From Eledone cirrhosa (lineage: Eukaryota): DNA of 64,000 nucleotides. The notes under the pieces were generated by a model, which saw only the letters and a list, made by a program, of their open reading frames with translations, searched no databases and was not told the DNA's origin. Each line of letters begins with the position of its first letter. Within the stretch, counting starts at the first letter, position 1. The position numbers were made by a program, and so were the translations under genes. The DNA lies in the NCBI GenBank assembly GCA_964016885.1, contig OZ024742.1, forward strand, positions 96,782,001 to 96,846,000, written 5' to 3'. Positions 29,802 to 56,614 of the stretch are shown here, piece by piece.

Positions 29802-29998
29802 TTAACAAAATAGATATTCTTGTGATCAATTATATTTTATTATACATATTTCAGAGGTACTGAGTTAAGTTCAACAGTACGTCCTCATCAGATAATATAA
29901 TATTATATCTGATGAGGACGTACTGTTGAACTTAACTCAGTACCTCTGAAATATGTATAATAAAATATAATTGATCACAAGAATATCTATTTTGTTAA
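29802..29998. repeat. Palindrome (93-bp perfect arms, 11-nt spacer) carrying two divergent HHRs
   Basis: 29802-29894 is the reverse complement of 29906-29998. Confidence 0.95.
29901..29967 (+). ncRNA. Type I hammerhead ribozyme (mirror copy on - strand at 29833-29899)
   Basis: Stem I tattatat/ataaaata (1 mismatch), CTGATGA, stem II ggacgtactg/cagtacctct (1 mismatch), GAAA, self-complementary stem III atatgtat, cleavage triplet AUA. Confidence 0.75.
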
Positions 29999-30589
29999 CA
30001 TTTTGAATTAATATATATATATATATATGTGTGTGAATGAAGTAATTCCATCGGAAAAGTCCAGGAAAAAAGAGTGCTCTATGTATGCAACAGAGCTTAA
30101 TTATTATTATTATGTAATAAACAACATAAGGCAAACACTCAGATAAACGAACATCAACGGCCCTCGCAAGTAAGGTATGGGATCTCAAGGATAGTAATAT
30201 CCCGTAATCTATTGATTGGTCTATATTAGACCATTCGAGGGAGTAACAAAGGGGCACAAAGAATTGTTCTTTGTGTACCACAGAAAAGTATAGGATTTTG
30301 CTAAACTTGAGAGCCACTTCCGCTTGCCTTAACTCAAAGACTGAGATCTTCAGATGCTGTCCTCATCTGAAATCGCATCTGATCTGTAACTGGATTGACA
30401 CTCCTACGATAAATCAACCGCCTTGAACTCCTTCTCTGCTCTTTACTTTTGCTACGGTTTTTATTTTGCTGATTCTACCTTCTGTACTCTTGTATATTTA
30501 AACATTTTTTCTCCCTTACCTCCCCTTATATTTTTACCTCCTCTTAGCCCCCCCCCCCCCCATATATTCTTTTTGTTTTGCCCTTCACA

Positions 30590-32080
30590 TACCTATGTGT
30601 ATGTGTATGTATTTTTGTGTGTATATATATGTGAGTATATATGTATATATGTACGTATATGTTTGTGTGTATATATATATATATATATATATGTATATGT
30701 ATATATATATATGTATATATATATGTGTGTGTGCGTGTCTGTATGTGTGTATATAATTGTATATTTGTGTGTGTATATGTATGTATATGTGGATAAACCA
30801 GGTTTTTTTCATTCTGAAGATTGAAGGAAACTTTTTTTGCTTTTAAGAAACCTCTGGTGAATGGATTAATTGCCTTGTATGGCTTTATTACTTTACTACT
30901 ATATATACGTTTATGTAAGATTCATTTGTCTTATCTAATACTGAGCTTTACACATACACACATGTATATATGTGTGTGTGTATGTGTATGCATGTGTGTA
31001 TGTGTACGTGTATGTGTGTATATATATGTATATATATATATATGTATATATATATATATATATATATGTATATGTATATGTATATATGTGTATATGTATG
31101 TGTATGTATGTATATGTGTGCGTGTGTATTTATTTATTTTTATGTGTGTGTGGGTGTGTGAGTGTGTGGGTGTGTGTGTGTATGTGTGTGTGTTTGTATT
31201 TGGTTGTGCGTTCTTTTGATATATACGTATTTGCATGTGTATAATTGTTTAGCTATGTATGTATATGTGTGTTTACGTATTTATATGTGTGTGTGCGTTT
31301 ATATTTTTATATTTTTGTATGTATATATATATATATATATATGTATATATATATATATATATATATATATATATATATATATATATATATATATATATAT
31401 ATATATATATATATATATATACATATATATATCTATGTGTGTGTGTGTGTATATAATTACATATACATGTGTGTGTTTATATTGTATACGTGTACGTGTT
31501 TGTGTATGTATGTGTATGTACGTGTTTATGTATTTGTATATGTATATTTATGTGTGAGAGTGTGTGTATGTGTTTACTATTTCGTACGTATGTATATGTG
31601 CTTTTGTGTGTATTACTTACCATGCGTGTCTGTCCTGTTAGCTGGGGCATGTATCGCTGTCAAAAATGTGTTAATATATATTTATATATTTTTTTCTTAT
31701 ATTTATTTGCGTGTGTGAATATGTAGTGGAGTGCATTCATGTATGTGTATGTATGTACGTTGTATGTTTGTGTGAATGTATGTATGGGTGTATATATATG
31801 TGTGTGTGTATGTGTGTGTGTGTGTGTATATGTGTGTGTGTATGTGTGTGTGTGTATGTATGAATGTATGTATGTGTATATGTGTGTATATATGTGTATG
31901 TGTGTGTAGGTGTACGCTCTTTATATATATATATATATATATATATATATATATATATATATATATATATATATATATATATGTGTATATGTATATGTGT
32001 ATGTGTACATTTATATGTATGTATATATGTATGTGTGTGTAAGTATGCTTTTGGGTTTTTTCATGTGTGTTTGCATGTGT
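30590..32080. repeat. (TA)n/(TG)n compound microsatellite field
   Basis: Directly visible; source of the YI/CV spurious ORFs. Confidence 0.95.
30807..30865 (+). ncRNA. Degenerate hammerhead ribozyme
   Basis: ttcatt-CTGAAGA-stem II-GAAA-cctctgg-TG-aatgga; H17 is G and stem II is decayed, so probably inactive. Confidence 0.5.
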
Positions 32081-32183
32081 AGTTTTATTTTATTTTTCCT
32101 TTCCTTTTCCCTTTTCCAGCCTCACTTTCATATATATTGCATTTTTGTTTTTAGAATCCATATTCAATAAACAAACCAGGATT

Positions 32184-32243
32184 TTTCATTCTGAGGATTG
32201 AAAGCAAAACGTTTTGCTTTTAAGAAACCACTGGTAAATGGAA
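32184..32243 (+). ncRNA. Type I hammerhead ribozyme
   Basis: Stem I tttcatt/aatggaa, CTGAGGA, self-complementary stem II ttgaaagcaaaacgttttgcttttaa, GAAA, stem III acc-act-ggt, GUA cleavage after 32236. Confidence 0.75.
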
Positions 32244-32467
32244 TAATTGCCTTATGTTGTTTATTACATAATAATAATATATATATATATATATATATAT
32301 ATATATATATATATATATATATATATATATATATATATGCAAAAGTTCTATTTAAATTATTGGGATACAACAAGTAAATATTTAATAACTGAAATAAAGC
32401 ACTCGACAAGTATTTGGAGGAGATATACGATATTAACAAATGGAAACTATATTTATAAAACCATATT

Positions 32468-32532
32468 TATTTCATTATACATATTTCAAGGATACCAAGT
32501 TAAATTATGGTATGCCTTCATCAGACAAAATA
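32468..32532 (-). ncRNA. Type I hammerhead ribozyme in an inverted PLE pLTR
   Basis: Minus strand: tattttgt CTGATGA aggcatacca-taatttaact-tggtatcctt GAAA tatgta TA atgaaata; same family as 51690-51975. Confidence 0.8.
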
Positions 32533-53952: not shown

Positions 53953-54149
53953 CATGGAACTCTTTTAACCATCTTTTGATCTTATATATATATATATATA
54001 TATATATATATATATATGCATTTATATATATATATACATTTATATATATATATATGCATTTATATATATATATATATATATATATATATATATATATATA
54101 TATATATATATATATATATATATATATATATATATATATATATATATAT

Positions 54150-54485
54150 CATCATCATCATCATTTTTACGTCCACTTTTCCCTGCTTGCAAGGGTGGGA
54201 CGGGAACTGATTCTGGCTAGATTTCTACAGCTGGATGCCCTTCCTAATACCAACCTCATTTACAGAGAGTGCTGGGTGGTTTTTGCCGTGGCACCTACAC
54301 GACCACTTTGCAGTGGAATGATAGGGACCCCAGTTCCTATCATCTTATTTCTACAGCTGAGTAAACTGGGGCAATGTGAAATAAATTGTCTTGCTCAAGG
54401 AAACAACACATCGCCCGGTCTGAGAATTGAACTCACAACCTTTCGATTACAAGGCCAATGCTCTAACCACTAAGCCATGTGACTC
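54150..54485 (-). mobile_element. RTE-tail short element adjoining a tRNA-derived SINE head
   Basis: (CAT)n plus ggatgcccttcctaatacc; 54370-54480 read on the minus strand gives a tggcttagtggttagagca..gagttcaattc tRNA-like head. Confidence 0.75.
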
Positions 54486-54889
54486 CATATCAACGCCATC
54501 TTTCTTACGGAAAGATGGCGTAGATATACAACATGAGGAACACAATAATAGTACCAATGACGATGTTGCAGATGTGCAACAAAAGAACTCAGTCGAAAGC
54601 ATGAAAGTACTTGTTCAATTAACATTTAACACTTAATATTCTACCATACTATTTCATTATAATATCATTATAATTTTAAAGGATTGTAAATAAAACGAGT
54701 AAATCTGACAAAGTTGGAATTCCTTTTATAAATATAATCTTCTATACACAATCATTCACACCCGTGTATATTTATCTATATATTTATCTAATTATGCATA
54801 TATGTATATATATATATATATGTATACATATATGTGCATAAATGCGTATGTGTATATATGTTTGTGTGTATATATATATATTTATATTA

Positions 54890-55668
54890 AAATACAAATA
54901 TTAATAAAATAGATGTTCTTTTGATCAATTAAATTTTATTATACATATTTCAGAGGTACAACAGTACGTCCTCATCCTACAAAATATAATGATACATGAC
55001 ATGTAAGATTTAATCAAGGTAGTGATTAACCTAAGAGAAAACTAAACATTATACCCTAATAATGAGAAAATGCGAAAACGTAATAAATTCAATAGAGGAT
55101 GTATGAGTAAAAAAAACGTTGCTTAATGTTACAGCTATAGAGATTTTAAAATGTGGGATACTACAAATTGAGATTATCTAGGAAAACATCTCTTGAACTA
55201 TAATAGTTTATGAAGGCAACTGATAGAAGATTTAAAGAGAGGGAGAGATAAAGGGGAGTAATATATGCAGAACATTTTTTTTCTTAAGGGCTAAACGGTT
55301 AAGTTTCAAAATATTTAATTTATGTTATTTTAAGTGTGAAGAATCAAAATTTTAAGTTTTTTAAAAGTTGATGGTTATTTATATTTATTAATTTTATAAA
55401 TTCAATAAATGTGTTAACATTTCTAAAATTCTGAATTTTATGAAGACAAAATTTAAAGGATTTACTTGGCCAGCGAAAGGAAAATTTATACTGTTGAATA
55501 TTTTCATAGATGTAATCTTTAACGAAAATTACCTATAAGAATGTCAACATTTTCGGTATGTAAAGCTTTACATTTTCGGTATGTATAATTTTTTACTTGT
55601 AGAGTGCTTCCAATCTATTGTAAAACTCATTCTTTGATGTACTCATTTAATCTTGTTTAACTCTTTAA
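54890..55668. mobile_element. Relative of the 29.7-30.0 kb pLTR family with decayed HHR
   Basis: 54900-54990 matches 29802-29890 (core mutated, stem II deleted); 55599-55665 is the reverse complement of 29697-29760. Confidence 0.7.
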
Positions 55669-55713
55669 TATATATATATATATATATATATATATATATA
55701 TATATATATATAT

Positions 55714-56614
55714 CTCCGTGGTATTTTCTGCGGGGTTATAAGAGGCTTAGCTCTGTTTCTCGACCGTTATATCGCGTGACTATCTCCCCCTCCACCTTTT
55801 GGGATTCTTTCTCACGTCGTGTAGACGCGTTCTTGAGACTAGTAAAATGAGGTATCCTCTTGATAAGTCGGCAGACCTCGCAAGGACTCTATGTCTTTAT
55901 GATATATTGTTTTTGTTTATGCCACGAAACTACGTAGTCGAGGAATTTAGGAGCAGTTTAGGTATGATACATTTTATTACTAATTATATCTAAATGTTTC
56001 TTCTCTCTTCATAATGTATTTTTAACTCTGATACTGGTTCAGTCTGGTTCAACCGAATTGGTCTGTCCCAGTCATTCATTGAGCAACATCGGTGAAGTTG
56101 GCACCCTTAACTCACAGTTGGGTGCGGATGCATTCATGTATATATGAGTGTGTCCGCATGTATCTGTGTATTTCTAAATATATTGTTAATAACTCCCTCT
56201 GGTCGAGCAATCTTTGAAGTGTGGGGACAGCTGGAAAGCTTCCATTACTCATACTTCTCGCCTTCTTCACCACCTCTTCTGCGGCCTCGATATAAATACC
56301 CCCTCCGCCTCCGTGGTATTTTCTTCGGGGTTATAAGAGGCTTAGCTCTGTTTCTCGACCGTTATATCGCGTGACTATCTCCCCCTCCGCCTTTTGGGAT
56401 TCTTTCTCACGTCGTGTAGACGCGTTCTTGAGACTAGTAAAATGAGGTATCCTCTTGATAAGTCGACAGACCTCGCAAGGACTCTATGTCTTTATGATAT
56501 ATTGTTTTTGTTTATGCCACGAAACTACGTAGTCGAGGAATTTAGGAGCAGTTTAGGTATGATACATTTTATTACTAATTATATCTAAATGTTTCTTCTC
56601 TCTTCATAATGTAT
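55714..56614 (+). mobile_element. Retrozyme-like element: 306-bp LTR-like direct repeats, 595-nt unit, inserted in (TA)n
   Basis: 55714-56019 vs 56309-56614 differ at about 4 positions; each holds an HHR fold; CpG-rich and apparently non-coding. Confidence 0.85.
55855..55944 (+). ncRNA. Variant hammerhead ribozyme, U3:A8 core (second copy 56450-56539)
   Basis: tcctc TTGATAA gt(c)ggca..tgccac GAAA ctacgtag TC gagga; GUC cleavage after 55939 and 56534. Confidence 0.75.

Follow-up and report, generated by a model that had tools for sequence, protein, structure and literature searches.

A window of 64,000 nucleotides (nt) from Eledone cirrhosa (assembly GCA_964016885.1, contig OZ024742.1, positions 96,782,001 to 96,846,000 of the forward strand), numbered here from 1, raises the question of why fourteen hammerhead ribozyme motifs lie between positions 29,802 and 56,614 and what put them there. 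A preliminary description of this DNA had assigned the motifs to about seven families that abut (TA)n repeats and accompany coding remnants of Penelope-like elements (PLEs). In this study, we conclude that the interval is very probably a (TA)n-rich stretch with at least ten insertions that have type I hammerhead ends, and that these were made, by nicking of (TA)n DNA and copying of RNA, by PLEs of the Hydra clade and by non-coding elements that would borrow their enzyme. The cluster itself is ordinary, as it follows the biology of a described clade, to which it adds families; more novel are an apparently very abundant non-coding unit and, in the tails, a motif that is a candidate start signal for copying.

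The first question is whether the motifs are genuine. All fourteen were recovered, the positions given for them earlier being the edge of helix I, and their catalytic cores start as follows (letters denote the insertions described below):

29891 (-) and 29909 (+), insertion A
30814 (+), insertion D
32191 (+), insertion D2
32524 (-), insertion B
36098 (-) and 36370 (+), insertion E
39407 (+) and 40735 (+), insertion F
51747 (-) and 51918 (+), insertion G
53890 (+), insertion C
55860 (+) and 56455 (+), insertion H

A relaxed type I descriptor (YUGANRA, GAAA, three outer helix III pairs and three helix I pairs) gave 15 matches in the whole window, and all 15 fall in 29802-56614 (the fourteen and one more at 38816 (+)), with none in the remaining 37 kb. 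Block-wise dinucleotide shuffles (n = 200), which preserve the local composition, remained far below this, with a mean of 0.35 for 500-nt blocks and 0.59 for 200-nt blocks and a maximum of 4. A stricter ungapped descriptor found 11 motifs at a score of at least 18 against 0.03 in 100 shuffles, and caught neither 30814 (+) nor the two copies with a U3:A8 core. When one representative per family was compared (A, B, C, D2, E, F and H), 33 of the 35 helix I positions and all 21 outer helix III positions were paired, against 22.7 (p 0.001) and 12.9 (p 0.005) with permuted partners; the pairs are built from different letters in different families, which is covariation. The view that AT-rich, low-complexity DNA has produced the motifs by chance can point to the many AU-rich helices, to a scan of Rfam in which no hammerhead appeared among the best 150 of 252 matches, the top ones being microsatellite noise, and to the candidate at 38816 (+), a weak U3:A8 motif missing from the preliminary description whose score of 12 in the stricter scan is by itself within the shuffle range. 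The excess over local shuffles, the empty remainder of the window and the covariation across families already refute this view for the fourteen motifs, and we assign it a practically negligible probability.

The fourteen motifs are not fourteen separate events, since they resolve into seven families spread over nine insertions, ten motifs on the plus and four on the minus strand. Judged by the CUGANGA and GAAA boxes, U16.1-H17 and three helices, ten are canonical type I hammerheads with an intact C3:G8 core and a cleavable N17 (H17), and two (55860 and 56455) have the U3:A8 core, the latter with an additional helix II mismatch. The remaining two, 30814 (+) with G17 and 36370 (+) with U3 opposite G8, fail these rules; both changes are likely to be damaging, and the ribozyme of insertion D is thus probably inactive. 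A further copy of family A at 54978 (-), absent from the preliminary description, has a destroyed core. Helix III, which had been described as a short self-complementary stem in nearly all motifs, is fully so in 12 of the 14, family D having 3 base pairs (bp) around a 3-nt loop. Its dimer energies range from -2.2 to -12.9 kcal/mol, with weak pairing (-2.2 to -3.2 kcal/mol) in the AU-only dimers. Since helix III would be unable to close as a stable monomer, it is as dimers only that the ribozymes should act, and in this model only the direct pairs of H (595 nt) and F (approximately 1.3 kb) could release unit-length RNA in cis. Predicted folds of single transcripts of A, E and G are 81-89% paired, and the six motifs in these fold-back pairs are predicted to be silenced inside long hairpins.

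The same properties bear on a suggestion of the preliminary description, namely that the stretch is an intron whose hammerheads cut or regulate the host pre-mRNA. Ten intact cores are present, and five plus-strand motifs (E, F and G-type) share a ATATATAT or ATATGTAT helix III, which makes the formation of mixed dimers conceivable. However, motifs occur on both strands, six of the fourteen lie in the strongly paired palindromes, the AU-only dimers are weak and several copies are decaying (G17, U3.G8 and the destroyed core). Moreover, a Pfam scan of 150 of the 159 non-low-complexity frames of at least 62 codons, a length below which exons would be missed, yielded nine matching frames, all with transposon domains and none with a host-gene domain; of the other nine frames, five were included in another Pfam scan and four are antisense to transposon frames. 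Retrozymes, the non-coding PLE derivatives considered below, are depleted in the introns of Xenopus (bioRxiv 10.64898/2026.07.22.740005). With no host exon found among these frames, the suggestion went unsupported, and pre-mRNA cutting appears highly improbable.

If chance and host function are set aside, the arrangement of the motifs should reveal the machinery that placed them. The insertions, resolved by masked self-BLAST and by reading of the sequence, are as follows:

29697 to 30011, both strands: insertion A, head-to-head pseudo-long terminal repeat (pLTR) ends with hammerheads at 29891 (-) and 29909 (+), cuts at 29841 and 29959, (TA)n on both sides
29794 to 30006: arms of insertion A, a 95.8% self-inverted match, with a tail at 29697-29793 on the minus arm only
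30040 to 30900, plus strand: insertion D, a 5'-truncated PLE with a GIY-YIG C-terminal remnant at 30124-30390 (with stops) and a pyrimidine-rich 3' region
32100 to 32277, plus strand: insertion D2, a short family D 3' end (83% identical to D over 96 nt) with an intact core at 32191, cut at 32236 and (TA)30 41 nt downstream
32340 to 33236: insertion B, a minus-strand 3' end (core 32524, cut 32476, tail motif 32398-32407) joined, probably in one inversion event, to a plus-strand fragment of the reverse transcriptase (RT) thumb at 32874-33218
35899 to 36477: insertion E, head-to-head arms (95.7% inverted match over 184 nt) with an intact hammerhead at 36098 (-) and U3.G8 at 36370 (+), tail motif at 35949-35958 on the minus-arm tail, (TA)n on both sides
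36814 to 38912: element I, 2.1 kb, non-coding, with 925-nt inverted arms (84.9%), absent from the preliminary description; its candidate hammerhead at 38816 (+) has a 4-bp helix II, an ACCGGT helix III and a cut at 38845, and a damaged mate lies on the other arm, both close to the outer ends of the arms
39392 to 41050, plus strand: insertion F, two direct pLTR copies with cores at 39407 and 40735 and cuts at 39468 and 40798, 1330 nt apart, a non-coding interior and the tail motif at 39561-39570; ends in (TA)17
51560 to 52017: insertion G, a perfect 354-nt palindrome at 51656-52009 with hammerheads at 51747 (-) and 51918 (+), a tail at 51560-51655 with the motif at 51618-51627, (TA)n on both sides
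52508 to 53982, plus strand: insertion C, a 5'-truncated PLE with a frameshifted GIY-YIG remnant at 52531-52909 and approximately 1 kb of pyrimidine-rich 3' region; intact core at 53890, cut at 53944, (TA)17 39 nt downstream and (TA)32 at the 5' side
54881 to 55668: insertion A2, a family-A arm with a destroyed core (AGGATGA at 54978, minus strand) and a plus-strand family-A tail at 55599-55662 that includes the motif; 81% and 92% matches to A
55716 to 56614, plus strand: insertion H, 1.5 copies of a 595-nt non-coding unit with cores at 55860 and 56455 and cuts at 55939 and 56534, (TA)n on both sides

Three layouts can be distinguished: head-to-head pairs (A, E and G), in which only one arm carries approximately 90-100 extra nt, the tail; 3' ends left by truncation (B, C, D and D2), of which B is also inverted; and direct pairs (F and H), which are partial tandems. 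These are the layouts of insertions made by endonuclease-bearing PLEs. Insertion G, the arms of which are 100% identical, is a relative of B (87% over 219 nt). The two F copies give 93.9% and 95.9% matches on either side of an approximately 190-nt short interspersed nuclear element (SINE), which was inserted just after the second cut. The roughly 600 nt at 54990-55598, between the arm and the tail of A2, gave no coding match and may be captured DNA. The arms of element I hold repeated ATTGGTT and TTTCGCGCC words that could be a promoter; we take the former to be CCAAT-box-like and the latter to be E2F-like.

The second line of evidence is the target. The terminal cut site lies at most 260 nt upstream of a (TA)6 or longer tract in all ten insertions, i.e., the nine with hammerhead motifs and A2 (background 24%, p 8e-7), and at most 160 nt from one in eight of the ten (background 15%), which agrees with the earlier claim that the host elements adjoin (TA)n. 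From the cut to the end of the insertion there are 39-78 nt in the tail-less arms, 138-156 nt in the tailed arms and 170 nt in D; the 253 nt of F2 are due to the inserted SINE. None of the insertions ends at a cut site, so the borders of the inserted DNA are not determined by cleavage. A model in which the 5' cleavage product, with its terminal (AU)4A, anneals to (TA)n and so fixes the insertion end was rejected because the ends lie at least 39-78 nt past the cut. Since 66 of the 74 (TA)n tracts of the window fall within 29.4-58.4 kb, the density of the motifs can be attributed to a local hot spot of the target. Five short repeats at 41085-41416, 45418-45650, 51065-51330, 52171-52420 and 54150-54320, in which no hammerhead was found, are also inserted in (TA)n, some of them as inverted arms around a tract.

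The third line of evidence is the coding sequence. The frame at 32862-33236 recovered 14 longer proteins among 186 candidates (E to 2e-17); the seven that were read are RT proteins, six of them with a C-terminal GIY-YIG domain, and in the near-complete homologues the RT is followed by GIY-YIG. A profile of all 14 matched the window at 30124-30387 (+) with E 1e-17, at 32874-33218 (+) with E 3e-32 and at 52632-52885 (+) with E 7e-7 and 4e-7, and the remnant in insertion D was also matched by tblastn (E to 1e-10). On these proteins, the window pieces, which lie in separate insertions, correspond to the RT thumb and to the last 90 residues, and such RT or GIY-YIG remnants are attached to three of the seven hammerhead families. 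Of the four coding remnants proposed in the preliminary description, three are clear; the other is weak and lacks a detectable hammerhead:

59857 to 59973, minus strand: decayed GIY-YIG C-terminal remnant, E 0.003

The same profile had no match inside A2, F, H or I. According to PMC8557442, the marks of Hydra-clade PLEs are RWK, DKT, a CxCX5C linker, and CxxC and CxH around a conserved E and N. In the window, the CxxC before the E and the CxH after the N are kept in both GIY-YIG remnants (CSLC..E/N/CPH at 30247-30423 and CNLC..E/N/CLH at 52724-52909). The RWK, DKT and CxCX5C marks are seen in the fuller homologues such as P0010 and P0011, the corresponding regions being outside the pieces that the window holds; across the 14 homologues, many of which are partial, RW[KR] was found in 3, DK[TS] in 6, ADKG in none and CxCx4-6C in 7. 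A further mark of the clade is the absence of a CCHH motif from the endonuclease; the GIY-YIG core of the 52531-52698 frame is without cysteines, but the frame is decayed and lacks the upstream linker. A metagenome scan with the RT thumb confirmed one of 197 candidates over 27 residues only, which was not used. By their protein marks, the remnants are most likely those of Hydra-clade PLEs. For A, E, F, H and I, we infer a PLE partner from the layout, the target and the shared motif.

By analogy with published PLE work, the insertions most likely arose as follows. The element protein would nick (TA)n DNA and reverse-transcribe a read-through RNA that continues past the pLTR into the unit that follows. 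Copying would begin at one of two points, the tail end or the end of the pLTR, 39-78 nt downstream of the cut. Early stops would leave short 3' stumps, fold-back or twin priming would give palindromes, and run-on copying would produce the direct pairs of F and H. Non-coding units would ride along on the Hydra-type proteins, and as each insertion would leave (TA)n on both sides, the region would stay a target. Alternatively, A, E, F, H and I could have been moved by other machinery, such as RTE-type long interspersed nuclear elements (LINEs) or a fold-back DNA transposon, and have PLE-like ends by coincidence or capture. RTE remnants are indeed present at 15-18k, 27.3k and 44-45.3k, one of them starting at a (TA)n tract, and A, E, G and I resemble miniature inverted-repeat transposable elements. 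However, instead of terminal repeats that flank a spacer, the arms are head-to-head copies of a whole short element with a one-sided tail. Insertion B, which is itself joined to an RT fragment of a PLE, is matched at 87% by G and at 75-76% by A, and A, E and F have the tail motif in common with B and G. We consider such other machinery improbable, and the action of Hydra-clade proteins remains the preferred explanation.

The motif in question, GTHGAGTGCT, occurs seven times in the window against 0.18 expected, an expectation that is optimistic as the pattern was drawn from these copies. It lies 69-96 nt after the cut in five insertions (A, B, E, F and G), and one copy is in the A2 tail. From its start to the (TA)n junction there are 67 nt in A, 69 in B, 60 in E, 70 in G and 69 in A2. 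Because A and A2 are relatives, as are B and G, this amounts to three independent families, plus F with the motif inside its unit. The copy in A and a variant in H are placed as follows:

29752 to 29761, minus strand: tail motif of A, GTTGAGTGCT, 80 nt after the cut and 67 nt before (TA)n
56117 to 56126, plus strand: variant tail motif of H, GTTGGGTGCG, 66 and 71 nt before the junctions that other copies of H have at 56183 and 56188

A matrix built from A, B, E and F ranks GTTGGGTGCG first of 586 plus-strand sites in H (chance approximately 0.04 for the position and 0.004 for the score). Neither element I nor the sequence downstream of C, D and D2 yielded the motif. Seven of eight local predicted folds place a small hairpin over it, with differing registers and mostly weak energies, and a common tail fold, looked for in seven tails, was not found (z -2.2 to +2.3). 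Of six published Hydra consensuses inspected by eye, two have GAGCACT approximately 55-65 nt downstream of the cut and another has it close to the 5' start; its central letters differ from those of the motif, and its presence in these ends is a hint only. Judging from sequence, GTHGAGTGCT is a candidate for a signal that positions the tail-end start site. In the literature searched, which left Repbase, Dfam and most subscription journals outside, there was no report of such a motif or of these families. The seventh copy in the window, an exact one at 41513-41522 (-), has no hammerhead upstream and lies 82 nt from (TA)5; it is possibly the orphan tail of another family.

The unit of insertion H has a 10-nt palindromic helix III and a long structured domain II. 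Its direct repeat is 99% identical over 293 nt, and, as in F, the unit is non-coding and two consecutive repeats each have a type I hammerhead; only 1.5 units are present in the window. Six public runs from three studies contain 45-70% of the sampled words of H, and the unit (55716-56310) was covered in all 30 bins in each of four runs. In run X1, 1257 contigs of H were found with a summed depth of 8e4-6e5; this depth is no copy number, and suggests either very many copies or heavy expression. One 620-nt contig of run X5 closes the unit on itself, and the same junction is present in X6 and X1; a closed contig is also expected from partial tandems in DNA. None of the six runs is listed as RNA, their type being unrecorded. 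Among the loose ends listed, which are the strongest, with 62 weaker ones besides, the sequence of other copies passes into (AT)n at 56019, the pLTR end (11 contigs, X1), and at a tail end at 56183 (3 contigs, X1) or 56188 (1 contig, X4). Domain II stays paired despite the three listed changes in the ribozyme (55893, 55904 and the loss of 2 loop nt at 55898), and none of 24 variable places falls in the approximately 44 nt of the core, a depletion that is not significant on its own. H is thus a self-contained, multi-copy, non-coding family with PLE-type ends.

In addition to PLE-driven insertion, H, and perhaps F, may be a true retrozyme, which would be transcribed, cut as a dimer to a monomer of approximately 595 nt, circularised and reverse-transcribed from the circle. 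The unit is non-coding with 42% GC, the window copy is longer than one unit, its helix III dimer has the strongest energy (-12.9 kcal/mol), and the cut-to-cut unit has a predicted circular fold of -181 kcal/mol compared to -138 +/- 7 in 40 shuffles (z -5.9). The closure of the unit in X5, its junction in X6 and the many contigs of X1 fit a circle, and animal retrozymes are known to be expressed as circles (PMC7229834) with a range of 51-972 bp (bioRxiv 10.64898/2026.07.22.740005). However, partial tandems in DNA account for the closed contig as well in runs of unrecorded type, the insertion ends are not at the cut site, there are only 1.5 units instead of a long array, the second ribozyme carries the helix II mismatch, and the one PLE studied by biochemistry gave no reads with an end at the cut (PMC11167929). 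We therefore regard a circular intermediate as a serious possibility that we would not favour at present. More tentative still, and rather doubtful as a whole, is the combined proposal that Hydra-clade PLEs and their non-coding parasites share the cis signal GTHGAGTGC, often on the 3' side of a small hairpin, which would set the RT start 60-70 nt downstream, and that H is a very abundant U3:A8 retrozyme that keeps this signal and spreads via circular RNA of approximately 590 nt. If this were true, the unexplained PLE tail could be approached through its sequence, and it would be directly evident which PLE clade moves an invertebrate retrozyme. Should the motif hold genome-wide, it would be a testable RNA or DNA recognition site for a PLE protein, whose mechanism has been described in a single in vitro study, and could serve as a tag that assigns non-coding retrozymes to a helper clade. 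H is also a substrate for asking whether circular RNA is formed by a dimeric hammerhead of the U3:A8 kind in a mollusc-type host.

Several observations weigh against an origin of the cluster from Hydra-clade PLEs and their signal. Pfam recognised none of seven PLE remnant frames and none of the eight homologues scanned, and within the window no coding sequence is linked to A, E, F, H or I. Adjacency to (TA)n is not unique to hammerhead elements, as an RTE-type LINE (43980-45280) and SINE-like repeats adjoin it too. The tails are approximately 90-100 nt long, and 165 nt in H, compared to the published 30-40 nt of Poseidon-type elements (PMC11167929; PMC3846280). With regard to the motif, 24 sites in the window reach the score of GTTGGGTGCG, which lies 178 nt after the H cut, and the junction region of H is AT-rich. 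Additionally, eight of nine Xenopus retrozyme dimers were uncut in vitro (bioRxiv 10.64898/2026.07.22.740005).

The remainder of the window contains other repeats. Decayed pieces of RTE-type LINEs with a PHD-like finger are found at 15.0-17.9k, 27.2-27.6k and 43980-45280, the last beginning at a (TA)21 tract. The SINE-like family of approximately 190 nt, with copies 78-98% alike, occurs at 14417-14552, 18665-18868, 21038-21224, 36607-36780, 39167-39364, 40803-41007 (the copy that interrupts the second F pLTR), 47339-47563, 49667-50303 and 59503-59687. Decayed pieces of a Gypsy-type long terminal repeat retrotransposon (RT, RNase H and integrase zinc domain) lie at 9.3-12.3k and 33.2-33.8k. A frame of 114 codons at 3290-3631 (-) had no Pfam match and contains a WDG-K/E-LLP word reminiscent of a DNA-transposon fragment. 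A GC-richer tandem array of 15-16 and 31-nt units, with frames rich in P, S, T and H, extends over 61500-64000 and reaches the window end.

As regards known systems, the motifs align well with the hammerheads described in PMC4209133 and PMC6765202, in which palindromic helix III, dimer action, U3:A8 cores, a bulged helix II and low in vitro activity were reported, along with opposite-strand pairs 100-700 bp apart and thousands of motifs in many families per genome. The type I topology, the dimer-needing helix III, the U3:A8 core, the bulged helix II, the opposite-strand pairs and the predominance of single motifs from truncated elements are common to both, as is the number of families; in coral, more than 6000 motifs in 16 families were found (PMC7229834). 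Unlike in those reports, the accessible parts of which include no cephalopod case, helix III has 3-5 bp per half here instead of being absent or 1-2 bp. Retrozymes have been characterised as non-autonomous PLE derivatives of 51-972 bp, with one of nine dimers active (bioRxiv 10.64898/2026.07.22.740005). H and F resemble such animal non-LTR retrozymes (PMC7229834; bioRxiv 10.64898/2026.07.22.740005) in being non-coding and low in GC, each of their direct repeats bearing a type I hammerhead. H departs from them in its U3:A8 core, its double 3' ends of the PLE type and its 1.5 units set in (TA)n, while F (approximately 1.3 kb) exceeds the published size range.

A similar correspondence exists with work on PLE tails, according to which two internal RT start sites define the tail and ribozyme cleavage is dispensable for insertion (PMC11167929), and inverted pLTRs have a one-sided tail (PMC3846280; PMC8557442). 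Two fixed 3' end points, a tail on one inverted arm and a cut upstream of both are also found here; unlike here, a fixed-distance motif shared across families is not described in the accessible parts of PMC11167929 and PMC3846280.

The closest known systems are the Hydra-clade PLEs. That hammerheads occur in the pLTRs of PLEs is in print, as had been stated in the preliminary description; in the Hydra clade, canonical ones are easy to detect, and insertion into (TA)n is the rule in nearly every family, the supplement listing this preference for 26 of 27 (PMC8557442). The further claim of a large, under-annotated host-parasite RNA system stands in that non-coding derivatives exist, namely H and probably F, and falls in that the biology of Hydra-clade PLEs and retrozymes has already been published. 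The order of RT and GIY-YIG, the CxxC and CxH around E and N, the (TA)n target, the hammerhead 40-200 nt from the 3' end with its short self-complementary helix III, and the 5'-truncated, tandem and inverted copies are all features of this clade (PMC8557442). Compared to the Hydra families tabulated there, domain II is longer in F and H, the core of H is U3:A8, the window has no full-length open reading frame, and helix III of A, B/G, E and F is an 8-nt (AU)-type instead of mostly 9-10 nt. The nearest published family is Hydra-1_Obim of Octopus bimaculoides, which also prefers (TA)n and has the helix III acca-a-tggt (PMC8557442): the family D helix III, ACCACTGGT, is one letter from it, and the D remnant is, by eye, approximately 45% identical over 47 residues to its end. 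Whereas one Octopus family is listed there, at least seven hammerhead families are present at this single Eledone locus. The cluster thus adds families to a described clade, and the one Octopus-type Hydra family in print understates a diversity that amounts to seven or eight families in 27 kb.

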